In this document: piece by piece, positions 4,824-48,675 of the stretch
Numbering within the stretch: position 1 is the stretch's first letter
Layout: every line of letters starts with the position of its first letter
Virus genome (UHGV): UHGV-1370141
Source: a virus
Reading direction: 5' to 3' (one strand)
DNA: 64,000 nucleotides
Notes under the pieces: model-generated
What the model was told of the DNA's origin: nothing
Databases searched by the model: none
What the model saw: the letters and a program-made list of their open reading frames with translations, nothing else
Position numbers and translations under genes: made by a program

Positions 4824-4845
4824 GGTAGGATAATATCTATCTCAC
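4824..4845 (-). promoter_or_regulatory. recurrent promoter-like motif (coding strand GTGAGATAGATATTATCCTACC)
   Basis: About 30-40 nt upstream of the SD (AAAGGAG) of the beta-like gene; same motif recurs upstream of at least 7 other minus-strand genes. Coordinates approximate. Confidence 0.45.
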
Positions 4846-4862
4846 TTAATTTAGGAACAACT

Positions 4863-5186
4863 ATGCTTGAAGATTTTATTACCCTAAAAGAAATCATACC
4901 TGCGCCCTATACCAGCACCTGGAAAGTGCTGCACGATTACACAGATTTTCTGCGTAAACACCCACAAACTAAAGTAGAAACTGTAGACCCACGATTCAGT
5001 TATCCTGAGATTCACAATTTCTACGCTTATTGCAAACTGAAAGGTTATGCCGAAAACATCATCTACCCGATGATGCTACTCAATAACTTGGAAGACCCTA
5101 TGAACTTCACCCCTGAGATTACAGAGCTGATAGTTCCAGATGCCGGGGTCGTCGCCAGTATTCTTAGCACCATCGTAGACGATTAA
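4863..5186 (+). CDS. hypothetical protein
   Basis: 107-aa ORF on plus strand between divergent region and a bidirectional terminator; no recognisable motif. Confidence 0.4.
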   Translation: MLEDFITLKEIIPAPYTSTWKVLHDYTDFLRKHPQTKVETVDPRFSYPEIHNFYAYCKLKGYAENIIYPMMLLNNLEDPMNFTPEITELIVPDAGVVASILSTIVDD

Positions 5187-5215
5187 AAAAAGAAGGGACA
5201 CTGTCCCTTCTTTTT
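5185..5215. terminator. bidirectional rho-independent terminator
   Basis: Perfect hairpin gaagggacactgtcccttc flanked by A-run upstream and T-run downstream, between convergent genes. Confidence 0.65.
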
Positions 5216-5221
5216 ACTACC

Positions 5222-6601
5222 CTAGTACGAGCTCTTAAACGGACTCGTAGAAGCACTAGCAAATGGGTTGCTTGTACTACTACCAAATCCGCTAGACGAA
5301 CCAAACTGAGGCTGGCTGCCGAAAGAGCTGCCTCCGAATGATGAACCCCCGCCAAAAGAGTGCCCGCCACCAAACGTATTCGACAGCGAGTTCGGTTGAC
5401 CGAATCCACCTACGTCACCAAAACCGCTGTTCTTACGCTCGCCACCGAAAGCATCTACTACAGAAATCCGTCCTACCATTCCTGTACCAGCCAGGTTAGT
5501 TGTGTTGTGTTCTTCCACAAAACGCTGCATTGCTGGAGAAAGATTACCGAAGCTGTTCGTTGGAGTCATCCGTTGCTTACGCGCACGGAAGAACTCTACC
5601 GGATCGTCCAGGTTCGGCTTATCCGCATCAGACGCCTTCTTCGTCGGGATCTGTTCCGTTGCCGACGATCTGTCAATTCTGAACTCACGGGCACTGGTAT
5701 CACGCTCAGGATTGTCTGAACGTGGACCGGTGTTATACGGTAAGGTCTGGATGACATTATCGTAAATCTCCATGTTGTCCAGCTGTGAAATCCATTCATC
5801 GTCCAACGGGCGCAGTGGTGTGTGGTCACGTAGCCCTTTCACTACGTTATTGTAGTTTACCACGTACTGTGCCCAACCGCGTGCTAACGACCCGAAGTAC
5901 GGACGGGAATCGTTAGAACCGGTGACACTTGGATACCAACCGAACACAGTAGTCAGCAGGCGATGAATAATCACCTTATCCTGTTTACGTTGAAGCTTCA
6001 CCGAGAAGTACATTGCAGTACCGTCTAAGGATTCTTCTTCGAACATATGGCGATAATTAGCCACACGGTTAAACTTCACACCGTCGATAACTAAATCAGA
6101 TGCAATAAAGAGCTGGGTAACTTTGTGCTTTTTATCGCGCTCCAATAAGCCATAAACGTATTGTTTAACTGCTTCCCAGGATTTTACCAAACGATCGTCA
6201 AACGTCGGATCTTTCATCCCTTCACAAATCTGTTCCGTTAAGAACTTCTTGTACGCCGCAGAACGAATTGCTTTACCACTGGCAGCCGTTTCCAGAATAG
6301 CGTCAATCAACGCAAAGGAACGAATGAACAAATTCGCATTGATAGATTTCTTCAAGAAACGGATGGTGCCCGATTCACCGGCCAGCACAGATTCACAGAG
6401 AGGATGGAATGCCTGACATTCACGTCCATCGTCATCTTCCATTCCTTTCTTAATCATTGCCGACGTTGGAAGCGCCAGGCGGCGCTTCACTTTGTTGTAG
6501 GTAAATTCTGCTGGCTCACCGTCATCACGGGTAAGCAAATCGTTCTCGAAATCGAATCCTTGTGATTTAAGAAACGATTTATAGAATTCAATAATTTTCA
6601 T
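5222..6601 (-). CDS. hypothetical protein with C-terminal FG-repeat low-complexity tail
   Basis: 459-aa ORF; last ~90 aa contain ~9 FG dipeptides in S/G/N/Q-rich spacers (AFGG, GFGD, GGFGQ, TFGGG, SFGGG, SFGGS, SFGS, QFGSS, GFGSS). Confidence 0.65.
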   Translation of the reverse strand: MKIIEFYKSFLKSQGFDFENDLLTRDDGEPAEFTYNKVKRRLALPTSAMIKKGMEDDDGRECQAFHPLCESVLAGESGTIRFLKKSINANLFIRSFALIDAILETAASGKAIRSAAYKKFLTEQICEGMKDPTFDDRLVKSWEAVKQYVYGLLERDKKHKVTQLFIASDLVIDGVKFNRVANYRHMFEEESLDGTAMYFSVKLQRKQDKVIIHRLLTTVFGWYPSVTGSNDSRPYFGSLARGWAQYVVNYNNVVKGLRDHTPLRPLDDEWISQLDNMEIYDNVIQTLPYNTGPRSDNPERDTSAREFRIDRSSATEQIPTKKASDADKPNLDDPVEFFRARKQRMTPTNSFGNLSPAMQRFVEEHNTTNLAGTGMVGRISVVDAFGGERKNSGFGDVGGFGQPNSLSNTFGGGHSFGGGSSFGGSSFGSQPQFGSSSGFGSSTSNPFASASTSPFKSSY

Positions 6602-6622
6602 TTATTAATCCTTGATATTTTT

Positions 6623-8326: not shown

Positions 8327-8359
8327 TTTGTAAATACTCCTTTAGGTTATGCCGATAAA

Positions 8360-10021
8360 TTACTGATTAAACCACGCCACTTCTTCACATTTCTTCCTGT
8401 TCTGAATTAACAGGAATTCTGCTAACATGTTCTGAAGTCGTGGGTGTGGTGTGTAGCCTAACATCACTTCTCCACTCCGAAGCATTCTTGCTGCTTCAGG
8501 TGTTGCCCTGAGATTGAAGTTAAACGGCGCAATATGTTCACGTACCAACAACGTCAAAGACGTCTTCAATGTTGACTGTTCGTAGATATTGCGATTGGTA
8601 CGGTATGCCTGAGGATAAAATCTATCCGATTTTATTTTGATCTCATTATCAATAGGTTCGATTGGATAACCCCCATTGTTGGGATCTAAAACCATTTCAC
8701 AGCTTAGCAACTGTGCAATCTCATGCATTCCGTAGTAGATATAAATCGCTTGTGCGATCCCCATTGCATTCTTAAACGCAGCAGCGTCAATGTCCTTATA
8801 GGTTCTGCGGTCAGCAAAGCGATGCAGTGCGGCTGCAACCAACCACTCGTACAGTTCGTAGAACGGATATTGATGATTCAGGTGAATAGAATCAATCAGT
8901 ACCTTAGCATCCGCAGGAGCGATATCGATCCCTAAGGAACGAACCACACGACGATAATCGTTGAAAAACTCTTGGGTACGAACAAACTCTTTCATCGGCG
9001 CTTTAGAGCGCGCTTGAACCAAGTCTATCGCACAAGTTTTCCCTTTCTCACCGTTAAACATAATCTTTTCAGGATGCGCTTTTAAGATGACGTTCTGTGA
9101 CGAAATCTTTCCTGCAAATCCTGTTTCGATTTCCTGCTTGATATTAAAGTACATCCCTGCAACGATGTTGTTCTCCACCATCGTACCTGGAGGTAACTCT
9201 GCGCCGATGAGTTTCATGGCGATTAAGCGAATCACCGCGAATGCCATGATGTACTCTTCCACCATATCCGTACCGTAACCACAGATAGAGGCCAGCACCG
9301 TTAAGTTCGCACTGTTCGGTCCTTTATTGCCACCGTCCTGTACTTTCGAAATCACCGACACTAAGAAGTCCCGCAATTTACTGATTGCAGGTAGTTGTGC
9401 TATCTCGGTGTCGTAAAGCAATTCCATGCAATGGGTTAAGTTATAAACGCTTTTCCGCTTGGAGTCCACAGCGGCGCGTGTTGTTGGGAAAGCATCCATG
9501 ACCAAGAATACCGGAATGAACGGTTTTACCATCAACGACAGTATGACCAGTTCGTAGTAGTCTTGTACGATATACGTCATCTCTTTCGGATAGTTAGATG
9601 ACATTTCTTCGTAAGTTTCGTGGACGTTTTGAGGAATCCACACGGAGCTTTGTGGATAGAGTTGGCGGAATCTGTCCGCGTGGTGGAATTTGGCAATTTG
9701 TGCAACAATCTCTGGCGCATGTTTACGAATCGTTTCGGGTTCTTCATTACCCAGCATTTCTAACTCTTCGTACGCCGAGAATAATTCTTCCTTTTCCTCC
9801 GACGTTAACGTTGACCAATAACGTTCGATTTCCATGAACATAATTTTGTCATGGGTAACCACTTTGCCGGAGCTATCGCGTACGTCTGGCACATTCGCAT
9901 CTTTGCGTCCATTACGGAATCCGTTAAACCCTACTTCCTTATCACCGTAACTAATAATGAGACGGTCGCGATTTTTCTCAATACGCATTTTAAAATCTCC
10001 AGGGATAACATAGTCGACCAC
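8360..10021 (-). CDS. hypothetical protein
   Basis: 553-aa ORF; track start is GTG at 10021, a more plausible start is the ATG at about 9988 (M12) preceded by GGAG. Confidence 0.6.
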   Translation of the reverse strand: MVDYVIPGDFKMRIEKNRDRLIISYGDKEVGFNGFRNGRKDANVPDVRDSSGKVVTHDKIMFMEIERYWSTLTSEEKEELFSAYEELEMLGNEEPETIRKHAPEIVAQIAKFHHADRFRQLYPQSSVWIPQNVHETYEEMSSNYPKEMTYIVQDYYELVILSLMVKPFIPVFLVMDAFPTTRAAVDSKRKSVYNLTHCMELLYDTEIAQLPAISKLRDFLVSVISKVQDGGNKGPNSANLTVLASICGYGTDMVEEYIMAFAVIRLIAMKLIGAELPPGTMVENNIVAGMYFNIKQEIETGFAGKISSQNVILKAHPEKIMFNGEKGKTCAIDLVQARSKAPMKEFVRTQEFFNDYRRVVRSLGIDIAPADAKVLIDSIHLNHQYPFYELYEWLVAAALHRFADRRTYKDIDAAAFKNAMGIAQAIYIYYGMHEIAQLLSCEMVLDPNNGGYPIEPIDNEIKIKSDRFYPQAYRTNRNIYEQSTLKTSLTLLVREHIAPFNFNLRATPEAARMLRSGEVMLGYTPHPRLQNMLAEFLLIQNRKKCEEVAWFNQ

Positions 10022-10022
10022 A

Positions 10023-10045
10023 AAGATAAAATCTATCTAAGATAA
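10023..10045 (-). promoter_or_regulatory. recurrent promoter-like motif (coding strand TTAGATAGATTTTATC)
   Basis: Variant of the GATAGATATTATC motif immediately upstream of the 8360..10021 gene. Approximate. Confidence 0.35.
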
Positions 10046-10077
10046 CTTCGACTGTGTTCTGCACACATACACGATAA

Positions 10078-10114
10078 GAAGCCCCAGGATTCCCTGGGGC
10101 TGAATTATTGTTTT
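10078..10114. terminator. candidate terminator hairpin
   Basis: Hairpin gccccagg-attc-cctggggc with T-rich flank, just downstream of the 10122..10763 gene. Confidence 0.35.
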
Positions 10115-10121
10115 ACGTTAA

Positions 10122-10763: not shown

Positions 10764-10821
10764 TTACTTTATCCTATTCTACATTTTCGGAGTGCTCAAA
10801 CTAACAAAACGTTCTGTAAAA

Positions 10822-11658
10822 TTAGCGAGCCAGTCTGTGAAGGAACTCAATTACGAAAGGTTCGTTTACCAACTTCAAGCAACTGTAGATACGATCCATC
10901 GTCGTGTCTTGTCGCCAGTGATATTTTTCAGCGGTCTTTAACACCACTTTACGAACTTTTCTGTCCAGGGGAGCGAACATATACCCGTCGCCAAATAACG
11001 TCAGGAACGCTTTGTTAAACGGGATCTGTTCGGGTTTACCGTTAAGTTTCGTGTACCATTCTAATCGACCTTTAATCTTACCCGTGTGTGACTCTAAGAG
11101 ATTCAGTAACGGGAAATCTTTGTAGGCCAATAAGTCGGCAGGGTAATGGGTTAAAATCAGCGTATCGTGCTGCCCTTTCGGGTATACATCAAAGCTTTCG
11201 AACTTCTCAGCATATTTTTCACCGTACAACTTTAACGTGTCATGTTCTAACGCGTTATAGTGTAACTGGTTGGGCGTCATCTTTTCCTGCCCACCTGCGA
11301 TAGTACGGAACGACGCTTCGGGAAAGATTCTGTTCGCACTTTTGTACGTACAGAGATAAGGGACACATAGCACCGAAGGCGCTACCGCTTTCGCGGTAGC
11401 GTAGATAGTATTGATATCTTCTTCAATCGATGCCAGCATCACTTCAGGCGTTAATCTTTCACGATTTGTCTCAAACGCGTAAAACGCGTTACGGAACAGC
11501 GTCCGTACATTCAGGTAAATTTCCTGATACTTGTGGATAGGGATCGGTCCCTTCCAGTCGGCATACTCTCCTTCATGGAGGAGCCCTTCAAAAGCCAACG
11601 ATGTGGCAATTGACATCTGATAAAACCCAAACGTGCGATCAACACTGATTGGGGTCAT
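10822..11658 (-). CDS. hypothetical protein
   Basis: 278-aa ORF, start overlaps stop of the upstream phosphoesterase gene. Confidence 0.55.
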   Translation of the reverse strand: MTPISVDRTFGFYQMSIATSLAFEGLLHEGEYADWKGPIPIHKYQEIYLNVRTLFRNAFYAFETNRERLTPEVMLASIEEDINTIYATAKAVAPSVLCVPYLCTYKSANRIFPEASFRTIAGGQEKMTPNQLHYNALEHDTLKLYGEKYAEKFESFDVYPKGQHDTLILTHYPADLLAYKDFPLLNLLESHTGKIKGRLEWYTKLNGKPEQIPFNKAFLTLFGDGYMFAPLDRKVRKVVLKTAEKYHWRQDTTMDRIYSCLKLVNEPFVIEFLHRLAR

Positions 11659-13449: not shown

Positions 13450-13451
13450 CT

Positions 13452-13835: not shown

Positions 13836-13871
13836 CTTACTCTCCTATCACATTGATAGCTCGAGCTGTAA

Positions 13872-13900: not shown

Positions 13901-13904
13901 CACT

Positions 13905-14498: not shown

Positions 14499-14738
14499 CT
14501 ACCCCGCCATTAAGATTAATTCTGAGTCGATGGCGATACCCGCCTCCAGATCTTCTTCGGTATCGCGTAAGAAACGGTTTTCCATGCTGATAAGCTCATT
14601 GTGTAACACCATGCTGCTAGACACTTCGTCTACGTTTGTGCTGGACATAAATCCGTTATCTGGGCGATAAGCCAGCGCCAAATCCATCTCCGTGGTATCG
14701 ACTAAAAGTCTAACCTGTAATTGGTCGCCGTCGAAATC
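14499..14738 (-). CDS. RNA polymerase beta' N-terminal-like subunit, exon 2 (starts at the DFDGD catalytic triad)
   Basis: Frame of track ORF 14499..14783 from codon 16 onward: DFDGDQLQVRLLVD...GFMSSTNV aligns with beta' [15 protein letters not shown]...MMSTNNI. Confidence 0.75.
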   Translation of the reverse strand, partial: DFDGDQLQVRLLVDTTEMDLALAYRPDNGFMSSTNVDEVSSSMVLHNELISMENRFLRDTEEDLEAGIAIDSELILMAG

Positions 14739-15088
14739 CTGTTTGTCCACTCCATTCCTTTTGGAGCAGGTGTGCAATGACACCCTCCCATGTTTTCACA
14801 TGGGCACAGACTATATCATAACCGTAGGTATTGCTACCCGTAGGTCTCCCCCACTTCGCCGCTAAACTAAGCAGCTACTCTACTCGGTTTTACCCTTTCG
14901 ATAGTCGTTGAACGATTTTCATCGCTGCTGGTTATCCATTATCACAACCCTTAGCATTATTGGTTAGCATAGGCTATCTTACGAATTGTTTCTGACTTTC
15001 GCCACCCTGTCGGGATCGTAAGCTTTAGGAGTTTCCAGCAATTCGAGGGATACGCACTAGAGGTTTCCCGTCTAGTGGGCCAAATTTT
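14739..15088 (-). ncRNA. group I self-splicing intron (ORF-less, about 350 nt) interrupting the RNAP beta'-like gene
   Basis: Separates ...KAPNA from DFDGDQ...; 5' exon ends in U, intron ends in G; contains P-like ACGGGAAAC, Q-like AUCCCGACAG, R-like GUUCAACGACUA and S-like GAUAUAGUCU elements with complementary GACUA/UAGUC (P7). Confidence 0.8.
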
Positions 15089-16456
15089 AGCATTCGGAGC
15101 TTTGATGACGCGATCGGAGATACGTAACGAACACTGTGTAACATCAGGGTTAACAGCTGAGATAAATAATGTCTGAATAGACAACTGTACAAGCGTCGGG
15201 TTTCGTAGCGCTGATATCATCAGGCCGTAACCGCCACGAGACTCCTTAATAAGTTCGTTGATAATTTCATGAACCAACGGTACGTACTGCATTGATGCAA
15301 ATGCAATAACACGTTCACACTGCCGTGGTGTGAAGTTCCGTCGACCGAGTTTGTTTTCAATAGCTACAGATTCTAACGTCACTAGCCAACGCCAAGGTGC
15401 AATAACCTTCATAGCGTCATGCGGTTCTGAGATTGGAGAGATTGTTACACGACCACCCCACGGGATGTGTGTTGAACCTAACTTGGCACGATAGAATCCA
15501 GGTTTACCTTCCATCACCTCCTGACGATGGTCAATATAGAAGTACGCTAACTGGCGATTTGCTTTTAATGCGCGACTAATAATGAAATGGGTTGGGATGC
15601 GTCGTGCATTAGTATAAAGTAACGCGATGTTCTTAACCGCGTCTATTGCACCGGTATAAACAGGATCGATAAAGATACCCTGACGTCGTTCCTCCGTAAC
15701 GATCAGTTTGGGTGAAATGATTGGAAGATGAACCGGAAAGAAAGTGTGTGATTGTTCTTCGAAGAACTTTTTCCACTCTAAGCGAGTACGTTCGCTCTCA
15801 TATCGGTTATTTTTCGTTGGTGGATAAATTTCTTTCCAGACTTCAGGAGAAGTTAAGATATTGAATATTGTTCGATGGTGGTCAATAAAATTCCTAATGC
15901 CGCGTGGAACTTGATACTCGCTAAAGATACGTTTGATTATTCGGGATCGAGTACCTTCGTCTTTATCAGGTTTATAGCACGGATCTAACATCCACATCAA
16001 TAAATCAGAACCACGTTCTACGGTCACTTTGTTTCGGTTAAACTTCTTAAGTTTAGAACCGAAGAAAGCGTTAAACATCGACCAGAATCGTGGGTTAATA
16101 AAGTTGCCTATTTCCTCCGGGGCACGAATCCAGACTTCTGAAACAATACGATGTTCTGTCACTACATAGCCGCAGGTAGGACATCGCATACCGAGATTAT
16201 ATCGATGAACGATAGGTGCTTCACAATCAATACTACAAATGGGTGCCGAATTTAGCGTCTCGTCGACTGTCCGGTTCTGTAAGATTCGGTTAATCAACTC
16301 TGACGTCTCAATGGTGTCTTTATATTTCGCAACATCATTGATAATCATCGGCGGTTTATAGCCCTTTTCCTCCGCCTCTTTGAAAGCGTCACGTAACATT
16401 TTATCGTGACTGATTAATCGCCCTGATACACCGAAGTATTGTAATCTGTCTTTCAC
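15089..16456 (-). CDS. RNA polymerase beta' N-terminal-like subunit, exon 1
   Basis: GFYRAKLGSTHIPWGGRVTISPI resembles [32 protein letters not shown] resembles NRAPTLHRLGIQ; Cys cluster CPTCGY near the N-terminus; exon ends ...RVIKAPNA immediately before the catalytic motif. Confidence 0.75.
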
Positions 16457-16544: not shown

Positions 16545-18383
16545 TCAGACAGGGCTGTAGTTACCGGAAGCGAATGACATGTTGTAGTCACTGCCGAAGG
16601 AGTTCGGGCCGTTACCAGACAGAGTGAAGTTTTCACCGCCGTTGTTGAAGAACAACGTATTAGCCAGGCTATTGACTGCGGTAACACCATTCACTTGGAA
16701 GATGCAGTTATCACGCACGTAGTCCAGCAGCGCTTTGGCGAATTTCGGGTTGATTGCCAAATCGGTGGACTCGCCAGTTACGACCGGCTGTTTGCTGCCG
16801 AACAGGGAAGCGGCCAGCTTCAGCAGGTACAAACGCTGTTCAGTCGCGTTGAACTGACGGTGTGAGTAAGATTGCGCGTACAGGTAAGTGTAGGCATCGT
16901 GTTGGTTATCACCAACTTTGCTCAGAACAGACACCAGGTCCTGATCCTGGAAGCTACGTTTCTGGCTGTTGCTGAAATACTGACCGGAAACAGTCGGTAC
17001 GCCAGCGATAACAACGTGGTTGCAGGTGATGGTATTAACTTTCAGCATTTCAGCGAAACGCTGCGTGAACACCGTAGCACCTTTCGGAGCCATGTTGTCC
17101 AGGATGGTCAGGATGTTAGACAGTGTACCAGTGTTACCCTGGGAAACTTCACTGAACATCGTGGAGAGACCACCGATACCGTTACCAGCACGATGGTTCA
17201 CAACCAGCGCAGCTTCTGGGTAGGCGAACATGTTCAGGCACTCTTCGATAGCTTCGCGGTTGCCATCGATTTTGCTCAGGTCCGGACGTTTGTCACCCCA
17301 CTCTACGTATTCCATAACGCGGGAGAAACGACGATCGGTTTTGTTGAGAGAGTGCATGAAGCGTTCACGCCAGCCACCGATAGCGGCGATTTCTGCAAAG
17401 GCGGCCAGTTCAATCAGCTGACGTTCGATTGGTACCATAGCCCCGGAAGACTGAGAGTCCATCAGAGAAACAACAACTTCTGCTTGCAGCTGTTTGTAAT
17501 CCTGTACGCCATTTTCAGGTGCACGGCGGCCAGTGTAACGCAGGTTGATGTAACCCACACCCGCAACGCTCGGATAACCCTGAACACGTTCAGAGGACAT
17601 CAGCGTCGGGTTAGTATCGAAGCTACCGGTCTGAGTGTGTTCAACCTGAACCATCAGGTCAGCACGTTGTGCAGAGCCGTTAACGTCAGTCAGAGAACCT
17701 TCGTCTACCGCAGTTACCTGTGCAACGAAGCGATCGCCACGAGTCAGTTTCAGCTGACCCAGGTAGCCCGGAATACGGCCAAAGATACCCAGAGTCAGCT
17801 GACCCATCAGCTGGATAGCCCACTCTTCGGTCAGCGTTTTACCCAGGTCTGGAATGCAGTTCATTACCATGAATTGCACAGACGACAGGTTCTGCTGTTC
17901 GCAGATTTGTTTGGTGATGGAATCCATTACGCCAGCCTGACCGAACAGAGATGCCAGGGTGTAATAAGTTTCTTTACCGTTGATTTCACGGAAGCGTACA
18001 GACTGACCGTGTTCGAAGAACAGGATACCGTACATCCAGTGGCTGCCGTTTTCATCTGCTGGCGCAGCAACGTATGCCGCAGAACCCATTTCTGGATTCA
18101 CACCATCGATAACACCGCAGCGGAATTTGCTCAGGTACGGGTTACGTTCAACCATCTTCGCAATCAGCGCGGTGAAATGTGAAGCGGCAGAAACGTAGGA
18201 CATATAGCCGAACGCTTTATCGAAAGTGGAGATATTCTTAGACATACCACCGAAAGCATTTGCTGCGTGGGTGTTATCCACACTGCCTGCACCAGCACCT
18301 ACACCACCAAAAGACGGAGCCGGGTCTACACCAGCAGCGCCAGCATTTACGTTGTTAGGAATTTCGTTAAACTCTTTAGCCAT
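16545..18383 (-). CDS. highly expressed major protein; candidate phage-nucleus shell protein (chimallin-like) or capsid protein
   Basis: 612 aa with strongly optimal codon usage (ctg, cgt, ggt, aac), Gly-rich N- and C-terminal extensions, tandem promoter motifs upstream and a strong terminator downstream; no diagnostic motif recognised. Confidence 0.35.
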   Translation of the reverse strand: MAKEFNEIPNNVNAGAAGVDPAPSFGGVGAGAGSVDNTHAANAFGGMSKNISTFDKAFGYMSYVSAASHFTALIAKMVERNPYLSKFRCGVIDGVNPEMGSAAYVAAPADENGSHWMYGILFFEHGQSVRFREINGKETYYTLASLFGQAGVMDSITKQICEQQNLSSVQFMVMNCIPDLGKTLTEEWAIQLMGQLTLGIFGRIPGYLGQLKLTRGDRFVAQVTAVDEGSLTDVNGSAQRADLMVQVEHTQTGSFDTNPTLMSSERVQGYPSVAGVGYINLRYTGRRAPENGVQDYKQLQAEVVVSLMDSQSSGAMVPIERQLIELAAFAEIAAIGGWRERFMHSLNKTDRRFSRVMEYVEWGDKRPDLSKIDGNREAIEECLNMFAYPEAALVVNHRAGNGIGGLSTMFSEVSQGNTGTLSNILTILDNMAPKGATVFTQRFAEMLKVNTITCNHVVIAGVPTVSGQYFSNSQKRSFQDQDLVSVLSKVGDNQHDAYTYLYAQSYSHRQFNATEQRLYLLKLAASLFGSKQPVVTGESTDLAINPKFAKALLDYVRDNCIFQVNGVTAVNSLANTLFFNNGGENFTLSGNGPNSFGSDYNMSFASGNYSPV

Positions 18384-18424: not shown

Positions 18425-18449
18425 TTCACGTAGATAACATATACCTGAG
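18425..18449 (-). promoter_or_regulatory. promoter-like motif copy 1 upstream of the 612-aa gene
   Basis: Coding strand CTCAGGTATATGTTATCTACGTGAA, a variant of GATAGATATTATCCTAGTGAG. Approximate. Confidence 0.4.
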
Positions 18450-18504
18450 ATATTTTAGAATGCGTCTAGAACACACATAACTCAAAATAGTTAACCACCG
18501 AACC

Positions 18505-18530
18505 ATCACATAGATAATATCATTCTCAGA
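18505..18530 (-). promoter_or_regulatory. promoter-like motif copy 2 upstream of the 612-aa gene
   Basis: Coding strand CTGAGAATGATATTATCTATGTGATG; second tandem copy in the divergent intergenic region. Confidence 0.4.
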
Positions 18531-18589
18531 TATTTTTCAATGTGAGTAGAATGTGACCGTTTCCTATGTGTAACCCCAAGGAGTCAGTC

Positions 18590-19651
18590 ATGTTCAGTCA
18601 AGCCGAGTTAAACCAAGCAGTCATAAAGGGGCGCTACGAAGACCCTTCTGCTATACAATTGGTCAATGCCGTAAAAAATAATAACCAGCGCATTCGCAAC
18701 TATTTAGAATCGATTCAAACCAGCGTTGGTTCTGGTCATCTCGTCCTAAAAATCTTAGCAGCTATCGGCTATGCCGGTGAACCCACGTACGAAGAAATCG
18801 AATGGGCTTGTCGTCGAAAGCTGTCAGATATCGGCAACGCTCTACGCTTAACTTCTGTGGGGGAGTATGGTCAAGTTTTTAACGGCGCTTTTATAGAAGG
18901 TCAGGATGAAATCATCTCGTTAGTTGCGAGACCTGTCGATCCTAATCTTTCTTTCCGTGACTACACACCGGCGGTTTACCTTTATCACGAATACACGAAT
19001 CTTAACTGGACGCTCGGTAACGGAAAACCCCGAGGGATCAGCATTATCGAGATAAATCTGGTTGCACTACTGTGGCAATATGTTCTTGCTGAACAATACT
19101 ACCGAACACAACCAGAACCCATCACGCGCTTGGTATACGCGCAGCGACACATCATTTACAGGATGTTACCCAGTTACATGGATATCGCTTTATTAAATAT
19201 TCATCGTGCGATTGCCTTCGGTAAAGAGATAGAAGAAGAAAACCCGTTACGAGTTATTCCGACTCCGCCTCTACGCGATTTAGCAATCCGTCACGCGAAA
19301 GCGATTTCAAAATCGTTACGTGCTGGTAAACCTCTACCTGCGGTTGTCATGGCTCACATACCTCAGATTTTCGAAGACCCGAATAAACCGTCCACGGCGT
19401 TGGATCGAATTCTGTTTAAAGAACCCGGTTCGACAATTCAAGGCAGTTGGCATCGAAATATCGTCAACTGGTATTGGGCATTGTTCTGCCTGCAATACGA
19501 CAACACGAGCATGGGTAAATACAAATCTAATCTGATGGTAAGGATTGCCCGTTTCGAGGATGCAAAGATTCTGGAGAAACTTACACGTTCGGCAAGAAAC
19601 TACTACCGACACGAGTTAATTCTGCCATTATACAGTGCGCTCGAAAAATAA
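18590..19651 (+). CDS. hypothetical protein
   Basis: Track ORF 18566..19651; ATG at 18590 is preceded by AAGGAG, so used as the start. Confidence 0.55.
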   Translation: MFSQAELNQAVIKGRYEDPSAIQLVNAVKNNNQRIRNYLESIQTSVGSGHLVLKILAAIGYAGEPTYEEIEWACRRKLSDIGNALRLTSVGEYGQVFNGAFIEGQDEIISLVARPVDPNLSFRDYTPAVYLYHEYTNLNWTLGNGKPRGISIIEINLVALLWQYVLAEQYYRTQPEPITRLVYAQRHIIYRMLPSYMDIALLNIHRAIAFGKEIEEENPLRVIPTPPLRDLAIRHAKAISKSLRAGKPLPAVVMAHIPQIFEDPNKPSTALDRILFKEPGSTIQGSWHRNIVNWYWALFCLQYDNTSMGKYKSNLMVRIARFEDAKILEKLTRSARNYYRHELILPLYSALEK

Positions 19652-22071: not shown

Positions 22072-22124
22072 GGCTGTCCCCGAAAAAGGCAGTTTAACTC
22101 GGCTATAAGGATGGCAGGTAACGT

Positions 22125-22166
22125 GAAAAAAGAAAAAAAAAATAAACCCTCTCCGAAGAGAGGGTC
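22125..22166 (-). terminator. rho-independent terminator
   Basis: Hairpin accctctc-cgaa-gagagggt followed on minus strand by a long T-run, downstream of the 22173..22586 gene. Confidence 0.6.
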
Positions 22167-26179: not shown

Positions 26180-26203
26180 ATCACAGAGATAATATCTATA
26201 CGA
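26180..26203 (-). promoter_or_regulatory. recurrent promoter-like motif (coding strand CGTATAGATATTATCTCTGTGATG)
   Basis: About 30 nt upstream of the SD of the first gene of the small-gene array. Approximate. Confidence 0.4.
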
Positions 26204-26318: not shown

Positions 26319-27131
26319 ATGAGTGTCATCGACTACTGTCTACGGAGAATACGTCGAGAGATTCCAGAACCGATTCTTCGCGCTGCGTTTGTACCCAAAA
26401 ATCTTCGCTATTACGGTGTTGCGTCTTCCTTAGATAACGAGATTACTGAAAAGGTATTTAAAGAATACCTTATCCCAGAAGTTTCCCGTCTAGGTCAATA
26501 CACCGAAATCGACCTCCAAGGTTTACCTTTTGAGAACGACACCCAGGATTACTACTCACGTATCTATTACCTGGATGACATTAAGACCGGGGGTAGACCG
26601 ATACTGGACGTCCACATTGCCGTAACGCCGGTGGCAGGGCAAGCGTACACCTTACCCCCAGCAGGATCTTATTTAGACGGGGCAACTTCAGGGGTGCTGG
26701 CCTCCACGCAACAAGTAGTGGATAGTCAATCTGCAATGCCGCGTATCTCCTCACCCGAAGTTAAGAAACTTGGGCCGAACACCATCAAAATCAAAGACCC
26801 AGGAATGTTCGTCTACGCAACTAAGCTTCAAGTTAAGTTTGCAATGTCTGATGACTTAAACGAAATCAAACCGGCCTTCTATCCGGTAGTTGCAGATATG
26901 GCACTGTACGCCACTAAGCAGGTCATCTACAACAAAATGATTTTCGATATGGATTCAGGTCATCTTGAAAACGGTATGGAGTTCGGGGCGTTTAAAAACG
27001 TTATCGAAGGCTATTCCGACGCCGGGGAAATGTTCAACGACAACCTACCACGCCTACAGCGTGCGATGGTTCACAACGACGACGCAGGCAACCGTTACAA
27101 CTACATGTCTGGCGGTCGTTTCAAATCTTAA
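26319..27131 (+). CDS. hypothetical protein
   Basis: 270-aa plus-strand ORF followed by a bidirectional terminator. Confidence 0.55.
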   Translation: MSVIDYCLRRIRREIPEPILRAAFVPKNLRYYGVASSLDNEITEKVFKEYLIPEVSRLGQYTEIDLQGLPFENDTQDYYSRIYYLDDIKTGGRPILDVHIAVTPVAGQAYTLPPAGSYLDGATSGVLASTQQVVDSQSAMPRISSPEVKKLGPNTIKIKDPGMFVYATKLQVKFAMSDDLNEIKPAFYPVVADMALYATKQVIYNKMIFDMDSGHLENGMEFGAFKNVIEGYSDAGEMFNDNLPRLQRAMVHNDDAGNRYNYMSGGRFKS

Positions 27132-27986: not shown

Positions 27987-28020
27987 GGTACCACCTCCTA
28001 TAAATACATACCAGTACCGT

Positions 28021-28053
28021 AAAAATCAAAAAAAATGGGGACACGCAGTCCCC
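28021..28053 (-). terminator. rho-independent terminator
   Basis: Hairpin ggggac-acgca-gtcccc preceded on plus strand by a long A-run (T-run on minus), downstream of the 28080..28520 gene. Confidence 0.55.
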
Positions 28054-28079: not shown

Positions 28080-28520
28080 TTATACTAATTCGGCAACGTG
28101 TCGTTCGTGGTAGAGCTCTGCTAACTGCTTCGTTTTAATACGTAACTCACCTCTGTCGTAAACTAATACCCGACCTGCCCCGTTTGTTCCTAACTCGGTA
28201 TAAATCGCTAAACCGTACCGTCTTACAAATTCAATTGCCGGGAACGTAAATTCTTCACCGTCACAACGAAACACCAACATACACCACGGATTAGGGTTTA
28301 GGTGCTTACGCTCTTTCCCGTCCGCCCACCGTAAACTAAATTCATTCCGATTACGATTCAACACACGTTCAACGAATCGCTCTACTAACTTACCGGTTGG
28401 CCCATCTTCAGGTAACGCTTGCCACACGGAGAAATGTCGTGACAGAAACGGACGAATAACCGCCGCTTCTTCGAATGAATAACCCATACCCATTAATCCT
28501 TCAATCGCATCTAATTTCAT
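28080..28520 (-). CDS. hypothetical protein
   Basis: 146-aa ORF with promoter-like motif upstream. Confidence 0.5.
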   Translation of the reverse strand: MKLDAIEGLMGMGYSFEEAAVIRPFLSRHFSVWQALPEDGPTGKLVERFVERVLNRNRNEFSLRWADGKERKHLNPNPWCMLVFRCDGEEFTFPAIEFVRRYGLAIYTELGTNGAGRVLVYDRGELRIKTKQLAELYHERHVAELV

Positions 28521-28564: not shown

Positions 28565-28587
28565 CTCACTAAAATAATATCTATCTC
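28565..28587 (-). promoter_or_regulatory. recurrent promoter-like motif (coding strand GAGATAGATATTATTTTAGTGAG)
   Basis: About 50 nt upstream of the 28080..28520 start. Approximate. Confidence 0.45.
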
Positions 28588-28599: not shown

Positions 28600-28637
28600 A
28601 TAAAAAAGAATATACCTACCTCCTTTCGGAGGTAGGT
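28600..28637 (-). terminator. rho-independent terminator (ACCTACCTCC/GGAGGTAGGT stem family)
   Basis: Hairpin acctacctcc-tttc-ggaggtaggt with T-run on minus strand, downstream of the 28741..29388 gene; the same stem sequence recurs near 45825. Confidence 0.55.
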
Positions 28638-28740
28638 ACGTTCCCTGGCATCGGCATGAAACTACAGGATTAAACCCTTCAGGGCATGAGAATGGGCATT
28701 CTCGAAGGGCGGGCTTTAGCTTTCGGCAGAGCTAAACTGG

Positions 28741-29894: not shown

Positions 29895-30042
29895 TAACGT
29901 AAGTCCGAACTTAATCGGTAGGTGTTTACACGTTTTTAAGGAGCTTTCTACCCGTGAGCAAGAGCAGAAGTTATCAGAACAACCGACGCTCAGTTGAAGG
30001 CTGACGAGTTTGTAACTCTTGTTCGATTGCTCTAATCTGGGC

Positions 30043-30115
30043 GACCAATGGCAGGATTCGAACCTGCGAAATAACCGATTATTAGTCGGGTGTTAATTCC
30101 TCTAACTTCAATGGT
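30043..30115 (-). tRNA. tRNA-like element (about 73 nt; anticodon uncertain, possibly pseudo-tRNA)
   Basis: Perfect T-arm GCAGG-TTCGAAT-CCTGC, 7-bp acceptor stem with one mismatch, anticodon-like stem-loop CCGA-CTAATAA-TCGG; D-arm weak and no encoded CCA. Hand-folded only. Confidence 0.4.
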
Positions 30116-30124
30116 CTAAATCCA

Positions 30125-31619: not shown

Positions 31620-31857
31620 CCGAACATACCATAGGGTTTTAACGTTCGGAAAAGGGGAATGGGGGTTTACCCCTTGGGTCAGGTGTTCAGGATCTCCCCG
31701 GAAGGGTAACCCCTACCCGATCCCCCAGGTGGGGATTTTACCCTGGCGAATTACCCCGGGTACGATTTTCGGTTTTTCCGGAAAATACCGCTCACCGATC
31801 CCCACCCCCTCACCGGGGGTCAGAGCGAGATCAGATCTCATAATAAGGATCGCGCGC
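31620..31857. repeat. G-tract / C-tract rich structured flank of the AT-rich core
   Basis: Runs such as ggggaatgggggtttacccc, ccccggaagggtaacccctacccgatcccccaggtgggg, ccccaccccctcaccggggg; non-coding. Confidence 0.4.
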
Positions 31858-32270
31858 GTTTTATATATATTTATATATAATATATATTATATATAATAAT
31901 TATATTATTAATATATTTATTTAATATATTTATATTTATTAAAATAAATATATATTAAAATATATAATTAAATAATACCAAAAGGTATTATTATTTTGAT
32001 CCTAAAGGAATAATATATTTATAAATAAATATATTATACTATACGTGTGCGCACGCACACGCGTATAAGGAAGAGATCTTGAGATCAGGTTTTTGAGAGA
32101 GTTAAATTTTTAAGATCGATCCGAGAGACTTGAGGTCTCTCGAGAGTATTTAAAAAACCAAGCAAGATAACTACTCAACTTGAATCTTCAGTGTGTGAAG
32201 ATTCAAAACGTTGATCCAATCACTTGATCCGTTAGTACGCGAAGCGTGAATGTTTTTTTGATCGGCACGG
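31825..32270. promoter_or_regulatory. GATC-dense, palindrome-rich region around the AT core (candidate replication origin / DNA unwinding element)
   Basis: About 11 GATC sites in about 440 bp (expected 1-2), including agatcagatct, agatcttgagatcag, agatcgatcc; palindromes cgagagac-ttgag-gtctctcg and gaatcttca-gtgtg-tgaagattc. Confidence 0.4.
31858..32045. repeat. about 185-bp almost pure A/T tract (TATA/TAAT-rich) bounded by alternating GC elements
   Basis: tttatatatatttatatataatatatattatatataat... bounded by gatcgcgcgcg on the left and gtgtgcgcacgcacacgcg on the right; extreme compositional outlier in a ~48% GC genome. Confidence 0.8.
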
Positions 32271-32659
32271 CGGCTGGCCGTCGGGTGGCAGGGTCGGGTC
32301 TCACCCACCCCCGGCAAGGGGTCGTACGCTTTCTCAATCGCTCCACATCGCGCTAAACGGGGTCAGGTAACCCAAGTGTACTGGGTAGGGGTAAAAACCG
32401 CGTTAAAATCGTTTCTAGAGCGTTTTACGAAATCCGGTTAAAAAATCACCAACCGGATAGGGTTTCCAGAGACAATCCAGCACCCGGTTTTGGGGTTTGT
32501 TGCGGTTTGGGTTAAAATAAATTCTTCGACAGGGAATAAAACCCCGTCAAATTCTTCCTGAGAAGCTCTCTAACGAGAAAAACTCACCCAGGGTATACGA
32601 ACGTACCACCTCGACCTAAAAATGCGTTAGAATCGCTCTGAGGAGGTCGAAGTTTTTTT

Positions 32660-32711: not shown

Positions 32712-33836
32712 TTACGGACAGACCTGTTCTTTCTGAGGGTAGTGCAGTTTTACCTCCAACAGGCTGTAGCCCGTGGCGTAGAAAATCTGACTCCCCACTG
32801 AAGCCACAAAGCCTTCAGGGTCAATCACCTCAACGGAGAAATCCGATTCGAAAAGCCAGGTTTCTTGCTTACCGTCTCGTTCGAATACCGCTGCATAGCG
32901 ACCGTACTCCGCACCCCGTCGGAAGCGGAAAAGCGTTAACCCTGTTTCACGTTCGTAACCGGAAATCACACCCCCTTCCTCGAAAATCTCGGCACGGTTA
33001 CAGCGGGTAACGGTCAATAACGCCGGTCGTTGTGTTGGAATGGTTTTGAACGGGGAAGGCCCTTCGTATGTCGTTGAGACCCAGTCTCCCATGTTGTCCA
33101 GCGCTAACGCTCGGTATGCGATAGGGGACTTGTAATTACACAGCCGATTCCCTTCCGTGTACATCGTGTATTCGATACGTAACGTCGTACCGACGATGTC
33201 TTCCAGGGAAAGTTTGTAGTGTTCTAACTGTGCCTGAATACGTCGTGAGAGTATCGTGCACAGGAAGGTGTGTCCTTCGGAAGAACGACAAACGATTCCG
33301 TAATCCGTTACGGCCAAAAGCGTCGCATCGGTTTTACGGACAGGTTCTAATCGGAATGTGTGTTCACCCGTTTCGATGATAAACTGGGAAACGGCTTGGT
33401 TACGGGATTTGACTTTAATCATGTCAAATACGTCACCGGCTTTTACGATTAATGGCTCAACAACGTTCACCTGGAAAGGCAAGGGTTTCGTGGGATACTG
33501 GCCTAGTGTGGTAATCGTTACCGAACTGAGTTCGGGGTCTGATGCGTCAGGGTCACTAGACAGCCAGTACGTTAACCACTTAGACAGCGTTTGTGGGATA
33601 ACACGGGTGGTGTAAAATAACACCTCGCCTTGTAACCCTGCTTCCGCCAGTTCTCGTGCTAAGAACGAGTTGACGGCGTCGTAAGTACCGTTACGCAGGA
33701 TGTCCATCCCACCGACTCTGTCCAGGTCACAAATCACGCCGTGAGGAAGCACCCACATCTTGACTTGTTGTTCGCGGTCGATGGTACCTTCACGCAACAT
33801 CTTGTGCCAAGCAGGTTTGCGCAGATAATTTCTCAT
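32712..33836 (-). CDS. hypothetical protein
   Basis: Track ORF 32712..33869 trimmed to the ATG at 33836 (M12), which is preceded by AAAGGAG; promoter motif upstream. Confidence 0.55.
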   Translation of the reverse strand: MRNYLRKPAWHKMLREGTIDREQQVKMWVLPHGVICDLDRVGGMDILRNGTYDAVNSFLARELAEAGLQGEVLFYTTRVIPQTLSKWLTYWLSSDPDASDPELSSVTITTLGQYPTKPLPFQVNVVEPLIVKAGDVFDMIKVKSRNQAVSQFIIETGEHTFRLEPVRKTDATLLAVTDYGIVCRSSEGHTFLCTILSRRIQAQLEHYKLSLEDIVGTTLRIEYTMYTEGNRLCNYKSPIAYRALALDNMGDWVSTTYEGPSPFKTIPTQRPALLTVTRCNRAEIFEEGGVISGYERETGLTLFRFRRGAEYGRYAAVFERDGKQETWLFESDFSVEVIDPEGFVASVGSQIFYATGYSLLEVKLHYPQKEQVCP

Positions 33837-33863: not shown

Positions 33864-33888
33864 TCTCACTAGGATAATATCTATCCGT
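33864..33888 (-). promoter_or_regulatory. recurrent promoter-like motif (coding strand CGGATAGATATTATCCTAGTGAGAG)
   Basis: About 25 nt upstream of the SD of the 32712..33836 gene, in a divergent intergenic region. Approximate. Confidence 0.45.
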
Positions 33889-39374: not shown

Positions 39375-39376
39375 GA

Positions 39377-41893: not shown

Positions 41894-41903
41894 AGTGGAC
41901 CTC

Positions 41904-42809: not shown

Positions 42810-42871
42810 GAGTATGATACCTTAGTATGACCCTTTTTCAAGGTCTTAAAGACTGAATATGGAGACGTTCC

Positions 42872-44929: not shown

Positions 44930-44932
44930 TAG

Positions 44933-45808: not shown

Positions 45809-45856
45809 GAAAAAAAAATAAGTTTACCTACCTCCGTAAAGGAGGTAGGTACTTTT
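45809..45856. terminator. bidirectional rho-independent terminator (ACCTACCTCC/GGAGGTAGGT stem family)
   Basis: Hairpin tacctacctcc-gtaaa-ggaggtaggta flanked by A-run and T-run between convergent genes. Confidence 0.65.
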
Positions 45857-46417
45857 TTATTTTTCTTCCGTTCCCAGGACTTTCGATGCGGATGCACGGA
45901 TGATTAAGTTTTTCATTTGCATCAACAACAGGAAGGTTGAAATTAAATCGTAAGTGGTCGGTGGGGTGTTGGTGATATCGTCAGGATAAGCGAGTTTCCA
46001 CAGCGTTAATTCGTTGGAACCCTCACCTTTTTCGTTACGTACGATTTCGTTGTCGTGTAACGAAACCAGTTCACGTTCAAGGGAATCGATAACATCTTTA
46101 CCGAATTCGATTAACAGTAACTGTTTGAAACGAATAACAAAACCGGCGATAACGTTACCTGAAGCCGTTGATCTGATTTCAGTTAGGAAACGTTGATATC
46201 CGTTGATGGTGTGGGGGATGGTTTCAGCAGGCCAGCCTGCAATGTGTGGGAACGCATCTTCCAACACAGATTTCATTGACAGCGTAAAGACTTCACCGAT
46301 TTGGTTTAGGCGATTAATAACCTCAGTGCGCGTCATGACGTTAGGTAACGGTTTTACATCATCGACAATCTGATGTCCTGGTGTAACAGGCCCACCAAAA
46401 AGGTTAGGATTTGACAT
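45857..46417 (-). CDS. hypothetical protein
   Basis: 186-aa ORF with AGGAG SD. Confidence 0.5.
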   Translation of the reverse strand: MSNPNLFGGPVTPGHQIVDDVKPLPNVMTRTEVINRLNQIGEVFTLSMKSVLEDAFPHIAGWPAETIPHTINGYQRFLTEIRSTASGNVIAGFVIRFKQLLLIEFGKDVIDSLERELVSLHDNEIVRNEKGEGSNELTLWKLAYPDDITNTPPTTYDLISTFLLLMQMKNLIIRASASKVLGTEEK

Positions 46418-46434
46418 TTTATATCTCCTGAGAT

Positions 46435-46470
46435 CAAAAAAATAAGGCGGTCATAAAACCGCCTTAACTT
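46435..46470 (-). terminator. rho-independent terminator
   Basis: Hairpin aaggcggt-cataaa-accgcctt with T-run on minus strand, about 20 nt upstream of the next SD. Confidence 0.5.
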
Positions 46471-46621
46471 TTATTTTCTCCGTCGATGCGACAGATACAC
46501 CAAACCGTCAATCGGTTTAGGTAACCCTAACGTTCTGGAGAGTGGGTTCTGCCAGGCCGTAGGGTTAATCGGTGTAGGAGGGATATAGGTACGTTTTACC
46601 TTCCCTCCGAGTATCGCAACC

Positions 46622-47104
46622 TTATTCGTCGTCTTCGTCATCGGAAGCCATCATGTCCGCAGCGAATTGCTTACGAAGTTTGCCTTCCAGTGCTTTAGAC
46701 TTCGGCACACCGTAACCGAAACCGATGGATGCAGCCCATTCTTTCTGGCTGATGGTGTCCCCGGTCGGGCGAGAGAACACCGTGGAGAACGATGCGTTGC
46801 CGATTTCGGTGGTGATGTTCATCGCGGCCAACTCAGCATCGGCTTTCGCTTTTTCCACAATCAGACCAGAAGCGACTTTCCCGTACACTTCCAGGAAGTT
46901 AGCATCGTGTTGACGAACCGCGTCGGCGTCTTTCAGCGTTAAGCGATAGTCAGTATCGTTAACTTTGATAACCGGCAGCGTTTCTTCATAAATTTTTACC
47001 ATCGGGTCAGCGTTGACCACCAGGTCGTCGTTCATGGTCATTGCCGGAGTTTCCAGTGCATCGATCATTGCAGCCAGGTCTTTGATAGAAGTTACTTTAG
47101 CCAT
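46622..47104 (-). CDS. hypothetical protein with acidic C-terminal tail
   Basis: 160 aa ending MASDDEDDE. Confidence 0.5.
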   Translation of the reverse strand: MAKVTSIKDLAAMIDALETPAMTMNDDLVVNADPMVKIYEETLPVIKVNDTDYRLTLKDADAVRQHDANFLEVYGKVASGLIVEKAKADAELAAMNITTEIGNASFSTVFSRPTGDTISQKEWAASIGFGYGVPKSKALEGKLRKQFAADMMASDDEDDE

Positions 47105-47125
47105 TAGTTTTATTCCTTCAGGTTA

Positions 47126-47797
47126 TTACTGGTTTTGGATACGACTTTCTAAGTCGTTGGTGATTTCAAAAGTAAAGTGCTCGAGGCTGAGCATCTCTAC
47201 GTACTCTTGACGTTCCAGAATCTCTTTCGCGAAGAGTTTCTCGTACCACTCTGGAACGCGAGATTTGCCATTACGACCGAACTTTTCTTGTACGTGACGA
47301 ATCGCATGGAACTTCGAATCGGTAACGGATTTTCCATGGTCACGTGCGTATAAGTAAGAGCGGTACATGTAATTTTTCACTTCATCGATAGAAGGGATAC
47401 CACGATCCGCAGCCGCGACAATTTCGGATACGATAGAGTTGTACCCGCCTTTGTGTGAACTGCGATGTTCTAGTACCGCGTAAGCTATCTCGGTAACGTC
47501 ATCACAGGTAAGCTTAAAGCGACGTTTTAGAATCGGTGCAGAATCCAGAACGTAGTTGAAGGCTTTGATGTGATGGGAAGCACGATCGGCTTTAGTTGAG
47601 AAAATGTCATGTGCTGCCACAGCGACCAGGATATTTTTAAGGTGCTTAGACTCACCCAGCAGATAAGCAATGCGAATGGCATTAGACTTCACTGACTGGA
47701 TGTGGTCGATACGGTGGGCGCTGTCTGTGTAGCGATAGAAATCGCGGAATTGAGCAATGACTTGTTCCCAGAATTTGTTAATTTCGATAGCTTCCAT
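47126..47797 (-). CDS. hypothetical protein
   Basis: 223-aa ORF. Confidence 0.5.
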   Translation of the reverse strand: MEAIEINKFWEQVIAQFRDFYRYTDSAHRIDHIQSVKSNAIRIAYLLGESKHLKNILVAVAAHDIFSTKADRASHHIKAFNYVLDSAPILKRRFKLTCDDVTEIAYAVLEHRSSHKGGYNSIVSEIVAAADRGIPSIDEVKNYMYRSYLYARDHGKSVTDSKFHAIRHVQEKFGRNGKSRVPEWYEKLFAKEILERQEYVEMLSLEHFTFEITNDLESRIQNQ

Positions 47798-47818
47798 TTA
47801 TAAAACCTTACATGTCGA

Positions 47819-48208
47819 TTAGGAGAATGTGAACTGGCAGCGGATTAACATCAGACGTAAGTCGTGCCAACTGTCAGGTTGTTGAATGATATTCCGATAG
47901 AGCAGATGGTCAGAACTCACCGCTCGGGCAAGTTCTTGTACCATGTCTGCTAACGTCGGTGCCTTTAACCGATGTGTTTTACGCCACGTAGGAGACATCA
48001 TACGGACATAAAACGCATCAGCTGGTTCTAGGGTATTACTTTCCTCTTTAAGCGTCTCTAAACGCGTCTCCTCACGTTTTACGTGATTGCTCAACGCTTG
48101 TGGGTCTTTGACGAAAGTATAGAATCTGTCGTCTCGCCGTAGGCTGCACAGCAACCACAGTGTGAACGGGTCACGACAGACCTCGATAAGTTCTTTTGAC
48201 CATTTCAT
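47819..48208 (-). CDS. hypothetical protein
   Basis: 129-aa ORF. Confidence 0.5.
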   Translation of the reverse strand: MKWSKELIEVCRDPFTLWLLCSLRRDDRFYTFVKDPQALSNHVKREETRLETLKEESNTLEPADAFYVRMMSPTWRKTHRLKAPTLADMVQELARAVSSDHLLYRNIIQQPDSWHDLRLMLIRCQFTFS

Positions 48209-48209
48209 C

Positions 48210-48599
48210 TTAGCTACCTACGCTAGAAAGCATCCAATTGTTTCTGATGGCGTTAATTTGTTTAACGGATTCCCGAATACCTTCAAATAGTTCGATGCGT
48301 TCCGATGTGGAAAGACACTGTTTAAGATCTTTATCGAGAGAGAACAGCATCGCCAGTTTTGCAAGCGAAACACTCAAGATATCAGACAATTCATTGTTTC
48401 TACGCCACTCGGGATTACGGAAGATAGTCACCAGACGTCCGATGCTTTCGCAAGGACATTCTTTGTTCAGTAGTTTGTCACGTTGCTCGCACAGATAAGC
48501 CTCATCTGTAATTAATCGTTCCAGGTCATCTGGACGCATGATTGCACGAGTAGAAATCATTAGTACAACAAACGGGTCTTTGAATAATTCGTTTTTCAT
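48210..48599 (-). CDS. hypothetical protein
   Basis: 129-aa ORF with AAAGGAG SD and promoter-like motif upstream. Confidence 0.5.
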   Translation of the reverse strand: MKNELFKDPFVVLMISTRAIMRPDDLERLITDEAYLCEQRDKLLNKECPCESIGRLVTIFRNPEWRRNNELSDILSVSLAKLAMLFSLDKDLKQCLSTSERIELFEGIRESVKQINAIRNNWMLSSVGS

Positions 48600-48650
48600 C
48601 TTTAATACTCCTTTAGGTTAACAAGTCGAATAGCGTGTAATTCTACAACG

Positions 48651-48675
48651 CTCACCTAAGTAATATATATCTAAG
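48651..48675 (-). promoter_or_regulatory. recurrent promoter-like motif (coding strand CTTAGATATATATTACTTAGGTGAG)
   Basis: About 50 nt upstream of the 48210..48599 start. Approximate. Confidence 0.4.

Follow-up and report, generated by a model that had tools for sequence, protein, structure and literature searches.

According to the review of Sokolova et al. (PMC7598289), every jumbo phage that encodes RNA polymerase (RNAP) carries an AT-rich motif of ~10 nucleotides (nt), centered near -10, upstream of its early operons. The early promoter of phage AR9, AAATATATATTAT-(6N)-G+1, was mapped by differential RNA sequencing (dRNA-seq) and primer extension and is independent of new protein synthesis, and the starts of phiKZ and phiR1-37 likewise lie 6 nt past their element (PMC5312081). 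The early promoter class of phiKZ was defined by dRNA-seq and numbers 28-32 promoters (PMC8244752); AR9 has 41 (PMC5312081). Here, a 64,000-nt stretch of the virus genome UHGV-1370141 (hereafter, the window) was analyzed for an AT-rich element of ~35 nt, a shorter form of which had been described in an earlier note upstream of at least eight minus-strand genes. The window belongs to an uncultured phiKZ-like (chimallivirus-type) jumbo phage of the SPN3US-like clade, and the element is very probably an early-class promoter read by the virion RNAP (vRNAP) of this phage. It belongs to a promoter class already known in RNAP-encoding jumbo phages and reveals no new type of system.

Copies, conservation and register of the element

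A looser scan of the window combined with alignment placed eight copies on the minus strand, with TAGATATTATC-like cores (Table 1). All eight copies that had been reported exist, and each lies in an intergenic region (7.8% of the window is intergenic) on the strand of its downstream, minus-strand gene. The 12-mer ATAGATATTATC occurs eight times at ≤1 mismatch, compared with 0.14 occurrences expected. The 21-mer consensus quoted in the earlier note is too strict, because it fits just three sites at ≤3 mismatches, and the ~20-nt extent given there was too short, since the element also includes an A at about -29 and a G located 6 nt past a TATTAT-like hexamer. A weight matrix of 42 columns, built from the window copies alone, gave the eight copies 37-50 bits, more than 25 bits above every other position of either strand (≤10 bits); shuffled sequence reached 12.6 at most. 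In a leave-one-out procedure, seven of the eight held-out copies scored 28-38 bits versus a top background of 9-17. Between the end of the core and the start codon there are 30-60 nt (130 nt in the case of the distal member of a tandem pair), and terminator hairpins are found directly upstream of three copies, 10-30 nt from the start of the copy. The AAAGGAG Shine-Dalgarno sequence ascribed to the downstream genes is exact at four of the seven and is replaced by shorter variants at the others. An exact 14-mer scan of IMG/VR (AGATAGATATTATC) was uninformative, the matches listed being mostly chance single ones, and near-identical metagenome contigs are too similar to inform on selection acting on the motif.

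The phiKZ-like affiliation was indicated by PHROG and PDB searches of the window proteins. When 8 kb of the window was compared with 50,697 phage records by megablast, no match was obtained; relatives were identified by protein search. A 612-amino-acid (aa) protein encoded downstream of the tandem pair shares 54-58% identity with proteins from Salmonella phage SPN3US and from the Erwinia phages Asesino and phiEaH2, and the gene order is collinear, in reversed orientation, with SPN3US gp1-gp36 and gp239-gp263, at ~55% amino-acid identity. Because an identical 612-aa protein is present on metagenome contigs (up to 222.6 kb), the phage is regarded as an uncultured member of the SPN3US-like clade.

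In SPN3US, the window-only matrix recovered the motif at the position orthologous to each window copy, and in Asesino and pEa_SNUABM_29 (pEa29) it did so for the seven window sites whose counterparts are covered by the fetched regions. SPN3US, Asesino and pEa_SNUABM_29 (Seoulvirus/Erskinevirus) share with the window phage the consensus aGATAGATATTATCt..GTGA, the orthologous positions, the tandem pair and an intragenic copy. This conservation holds despite ~55% protein identity (~55% also for the 612-aa protein) and the lack of megablast-level DNA similarity between the window phage and these relatives. The whole SPN3US genome, assembled from fetched pieces and scanned with the window matrix, contains 21 strong matches (21-42 bits; background ≤9), all of them intergenic and on the plus strand, preceding gp5, 9, 22 (two copies), 30, 34, 55, 66, 76 (two copies), 99, 101, 112, 125, 135, 175, 180, 209, 221, 249 and 263. 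The gp76 pair heads an operon containing gp77 of the non-virion RNAP (nvRNAP), and none of the 21 matches directly precedes an annotated capsid, tail, terminase or vRNAP gene. This number and distribution are comparable to those of the phiKZ and AR9 early promoters. The orientation of the motif follows the downstream gene at 31/31 sites in the four phages and at 21/21 strong SPN3US sites. Among the papers searched, none spells out the motif of the SPN3US clade, and a search with the motif string gave only unrelated primers; the motif may appear in Lavysh et al. 2016 (Virology).

The layout of the element is an upstream part rich in A, in which one A is invariant, followed by aGATAGATATTATC, N5 and then G-A. 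Across the 31 sites, the A at about -29 and five core positions are invariant, the positions within GATAGATATTATC hold 1.3-2.0 bits each, and conservation beyond the hexamer includes GATAGA, the base after the hexamer and GA at +1/+2. In 8/8 window copies and at 30/31 sites, the hexamer is followed by the G exactly 6 nt later, and an A comes next in 26/31. Taking this G as +1 places the hexamer at -12..-7 and gives predicted leaders of 24-54 nt, with 124 nt at the distal copy of the tandem pair. Of the 13 positions in the window consensus AGATAGATATTAT, two depart from the AR9 consensus. AR9 and the window phage have in common the extended conserved AT-rich element (11/13 positions), the 6 nt to a conserved G, an intergenic placement before early operons and two multisubunit RNAPs. 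However, the window motif departs from that of AR9 in two Gs (GATAGAT), in a conserved C that follows the hexamer and in an A following the G. AR9, for its part, has uracil-containing DNA and a Gram-positive host, and its starts are mapped, whereas those of the window phage are predicted.

Reading the phiKZ DNA directly revealed TATATTAC-N5-G before small early genes and before gp54. The TATATTAC-type promoters of phiKZ and 201phi2-1 (PMC8244752, PMC11512511) share the TATTAC-6N-G register, as seen in phiKZ DNA, and are likewise A/T-rich further upstream (-20/-30), with leaders of 30-40 nt. Nevertheless, their upstream part differs in sequence, and the phiKZ hexamer ends in C, as in the window copy 48659 only. 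Two start sites precede phiKZ gp54, in parallel to the tandem copies of the window, but the second of them uses a middle-type motif, whereas both window copies are of the early type. The vRNAP of N4 and the T7-type enzymes provide a more distant comparison: there too, a phage polymerase (injected in N4) reads a phage-specific conserved sequence without the host enzyme. Those polymerases are, however, single-subunit, and their promoters are DNA hairpins (N4) or a 23-nt duplex (T7), whereas the window motif needs no hairpin and is accompanied by a split beta/beta' two-barrel RNAP. A TATTAY-6N-G register is common to Bacillus phage AR9, phiKZ and the enterobacterial clade, and represents a useful constraint on DNA recognition by the sigma-less vRNAP.

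Proposed recognition by the virion RNAP and rival explanations

Both RNAP sets of phiKZ-like phages, the virion and the non-virion multisubunit enzymes, are encoded in the window. The nvRNAP genes match phiKZ gp55, gp71 and gp74, all of them chains in the structure solved for the phiKZ nvRNAP (PDB 7OGP). They follow the motif: those running from 4799 to 460 lie directly behind the 4829 copy, and the one running from 16456 to 14499 lies downstream of the tandem copies. The vRNAP genes are orthologues of SPN3US gp240 and gp241, both of which PMC5105663 detected in SPN3US virions and attributed to the virion RNAP. The window also holds a divergent family-B DNA polymerase, a terminase, a tail sheath and virion proteins, and the matrix scan of the window found no motif copy before the vRNAP, terminase, sheath or other structural genes. 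The presence of copies upstream of the nvRNAP genes and their lack at the vRNAP genes fits the early-to-late cascade described for phiKZ (PMC7598289, PMC13282480). The suggestion that a phage RNAP recognizes the element and that it defines an early regulon including RNAP genes gains support from four observations: the two encoded RNAP sets, the AR9/phiKZ register, the motif standing ahead of the nvRNAP genes and being absent before the vRNAP and structural genes, and the lack of any called sigma70 pair.

By this scheme, the multisubunit vRNAP would be injected with the DNA and bind the AT-rich element, recognizing an A-rich part at about -34 to -20, GATAGATATTATC at about -18 to -6 and TATTAT at -12..-7. 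Initiation would take place at the conserved G six bases past the hexamer, yielding the short leaders with their Shine-Dalgarno sequences. The transcripts would cover non-structural early operons, including the nvRNAP subunits and a gene in the position of chimallin, and the nvRNAP would then carry out transcription of middle and late genes. The motif with its placement and its bias toward one strand, the conservation at orthologous sites, the register shared with AR9 and phiKZ and the identity of the RNAP genes are all observed.

Several points weigh against recognition of an early promoter by the vRNAP. The binding enzyme, the exact start site and the early timing are assigned by analogy with the mapped phages. 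The 4829 copy, which stands before nvRNAP genes, scored only 13.9 bits (rank 9) when left out of the matrix, and has CCGA instead of GTGA. In 201phi2-1, some nvRNAP genes have no adjacent early promoter (PMC11512511), and a motif before an nvRNAP gene is, given this phage, not a universal rule. Moreover, TATTAT, placed at -12..-7, would also make a good -10 element for sigma70, and the GATAWTATC core, a 9-nt palindrome around a central A/T, is also typical of sites bound by dimeric regulators.

The last two points each lead to a rival explanation. A host sigma70-RNAP promoter acting before the phage enzymes, with TATTAT as its -10 and an upstream TyGAAA as a weak -35, is considered very improbable. 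The hexamer matches TATAAT at 5/6 positions and occupies -12..-7 relative to the conserved G, and TTGAAA is found upstream in two copies; the earlier statement that the motif does not resemble sigma70 promoters thus stands for the -35 element and the spacing but not for the -10. However, none of the eight copies (minus strand) is recognized as a -35/-10 pair by a consensus scan, and pairs of this type are not enriched in the window (found/expected 24/30, 25/28 and 13/22.5, the expectation being from shuffled sequence). The TTGAAA-like element lies only 14-15 nt from the hexamer, compared with the 16-18 nt between a TTGACA-like -35 and the -10 of sigma70 promoters, and reads TCGAAA, TCTAAA or CGCAAA in most copies. 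The conserved GATAGA, the post-hexamer base and the +1/+2 GA are not needed by sigma70 promoters, and phiKZ-type infections are described as rifampicin-resistant and host-RNAP-independent (PMC4666361, PMC13282480). The palindrome could instead mark an operator for a dimeric phage regulator, with the promoter determinants located elsewhere. Its perfect symmetry over 9 nt means that the reverse strand matches at several sites too, and SPN3US gp101, annotated as a 'putative transcriptional regulator', lies directly downstream of a copy. Nevertheless, conservation is strongly asymmetric, the A-rich stretch being kept only upstream and N5-G-A only downstream. A pure operator need not face its gene, whereas the orientation of the motif tracks the gene at every site in the four phages, and the fixed distance to the conserved G matches the mapped AR9 and phiKZ promoters. 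An operator of this kind is therefore quite improbable.

Hardly credible is an element acting at the RNA level, namely a 5' leader, a processing site or a stability element on transcripts that start further upstream. Its position between terminator hairpins and ribosome-binding sites would also be usual for leader elements. However, three copies start so close to a strong terminator (10-30 nt) that another promoter would not fit in between, and the intergenic region 4800-4862, 63 nt long, is nearly filled by the motif. None of the copies matches an Rfam family, and both the sequence and the register match DNA promoters whose starts were mapped downstream of the element.

The intragenic copy and a possible two-way reading

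All eight of the original copies lie outside genes, and one further copy, itself conserved, is intragenic. This ninth copy lies inside gene 8360-9988 and is kept in all four phages, where the amino acids D-R-Y/F-Y are always encoded as GAT-AGA-TWT-TAT, with the G at 6N retained. AGA accounts for 1-5.5% of Arg codons, and neighboring Arg residues use CGN. Since it is conserved in the relatives through a rare codon, the copy is not a random coding-region match; the codon pattern suggests DNA-level selection for a candidate internal promoter ~290 nt before the next gene. Gene 2559-4799 also contains a 12-mer match (4443-4454), but this is not considered a promoter, since it lacks a G at 6N, scores -7 with the matrix and has no SPN3US counterpart.

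It is unlikely, though conceivable, that the vRNAP enters the near-palindromic core either way, firing both the early operon and a divergent gene, and that the intragenic copy is a working internal promoter. Isolated divergent genes abut four of the eight copies (starts 4863, 18590, 26319 and 33909), and the 33873 copy reads TAATAT-6N-G in reverse, 22 nt before an ATG. The best bidirectional candidate is SPN3US 191592-191630, located between the divergent gp220 and gp221, which scores 29.7 forward and 22.6 in reverse. Against two-way reading, the reverse +1 base varies among the orthologues before the nvRNAP gene (C, G, A, G), and one of the divergent genes is homologous to a phiKZ structural head protein, pointing to late expression.

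Predicted promoter map, neighboring genes and other features

With the motif, the promoters and operons of an uncultured SPN3US-like jumbo phage can readily be mapped (Table 1). It would also fix three ambiguous start codons: the GTGs at 10021, 26227 and 33869 lie upstream of the predicted +1, which points to the ATGs at 9988, 26152 and 33836 as the real starts.

Table 1. Motif copies and RNAP genes of the window, with predicted starts and counterparts in related phages
Feature	Coordinates	Strand	Core	Predicted +1 (conserved G)	Predicted leader (nt)	Downstream genes and remarks	Counterparts in relatives
P1	4822..4859	-	4829-4839	G 4823	24	nvRNAP beta-like gene 2559-4799, then beta'-like gene 460-2559; weakest copy, CCGA replaces GTGA	Same TACCGA variant precedes SPN3US gp34 and its Asesino and pEa29 orthologues
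P2	10018..10055	-	10025-10035	10019	31	Genes 9988->8360, 8326->6623, 6601->5222; terminator hairpin 10080-10101 precedes P2
P3, proximal tandem	18426..18463	-	18433-18443	18427	44	Before 612-aa gene 16545-18383	Tandem pair P3/P4 conserved in SPN3US, Asesino and pEa_SNUABM_29
P4, distal tandem	18506..18543	-	18513-18523	18507	124	Top-scoring copy	See P3
P5	26181..26218	-	26188-26198	26182	30	Heads small-gene block 26152 to ~22173	Orthologous copy precedes SPN3US gp9
P6	28566..28603	-	28573-28583	28567	47	Before gene 28080-28520; right after terminator 28612-28639	SPN3US copy at corresponding position before gp5
P7	33866..33903	-	33873-33883	33867	31	Before gene 32712-33836; exact match to the 21-mer of the earlier note	Orthologous copy precedes SPN3US gp263
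P8	48652..48689	-	TATATATTACT 48659-48669	48653	54	Gene 48210-48599 and genes downstream; contains phiKZ-type TATATTAC; terminator 48705-48733 precedes P8	Orthologous copy precedes SPN3US gp249
Ninth copy, intragenic	8607..8644	-	TAGATTTTATC 8614-8624	G 8608		Inside gene 8360-9988, 288 nt before start codon 8326	SPN3US L001 25216-25247; Asesino L002 25953-25994; pEa29 L003 ~26329-26370
nvRNAP genes	460..4799	-				2559-4799 homologous to phiKZ gp71, 460-2559 to phiKZ gp74 (PDB 7OGP chains C, D); first downstream of P1
nvRNAP beta'-like gene	14499..16456	-				Homologous to phiKZ gp55 (15089-16456 matches PDB 7OGP); downstream of tandem promoters and 612-aa gene
vRNAP subunit genes	53718..59513	-				53718-57884 and 57888-59513; PHROGs and synteny	Orthologues of SPN3US gp241 and gp240

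The 612-aa gene occupies the position of phiKZ gp54 (chimallin), with a divergent homologue of gp52 on one side and a homologue of gp55 following on the other, and synteny is the only line of evidence for chimallin identity. The protein had no PDB, Pfam or NCBIfam match, its comparison with phiKZ gp54 by BLASTP and hhalign was not significant, and its AlphaFold single-sequence model was unusable (predicted local distance difference test score, pLDDT, 31.5). The description of this gene as the most highly expressed one is not shown; what can be said is that it holds the gp54 position by synteny, sequence homology not being demonstrated. For the divergent gene beside the tandem promoters, 18590 (+) is a more probable start than 18566: a conserved AAGGAG precedes the ATG at 18590, and the resulting 353-aa product is that found on metagenome contigs and aligns with the relatives. 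This product is homologous to phiKZ gp52, annotated as a 'structural head protein' (BLASTP E = 2e-7), and the phiKZ order gp52 - gp54 - gp55 is reproduced.

The nvRNAP beta'-like gene downstream of the 612-aa gene is split by a group I intron at 14739-15088 (-) (RF00028, 63.7 bits; Rfam hit 14787-15099). The insertion lies inside the catalytic NADFDGD motif, exon 1 ending with ...KAPNA and exon 2 starting with DFDGDQ. In a near-identical metagenome contig (L132), the 350-nt insertion is missing and the reading frame runs uninterrupted for 535 aa.

The sequence TTTTT(C)ACG-N13-14-yTTATAG is present at 22103-22129 (-) and 27998-28025 (-), right after terminator T-runs, one instance preceding the gene for the DNA polymerase and the other a small gene. 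The orthologous SPN3US sites are 11492-11518 and 5494-5521, with only two instances per genome. A second motif class (TTTTyACG-N-yTTATAG) was rejected, as it comprises merely two orthologous intergenic regions; the sequence may be a different, perhaps middle, promoter or a conserved leader sequence. A 186-nt near-pure A/T stretch (94% A+T) at 31860-32045 contains the palindrome AATAATACC-N-AAAGGTATTATT. Its flanks (region 31800-32300) carry alternating CG/CA tracts and the densest GATC cluster of the window, with 11 sites in 500 nt versus ~1.3 on average. The same arrangement is found at SPN3US 30-260, and the stretch may serve as a replication origin or DNA-unwinding element. A lone tRNA gene, for tRNA-Ile(AAU), is located at 30040-30116 (-), within the largely non-coding 29.7-32.7 kb, where the relatives carry clusters of 2-13 tRNA genes.

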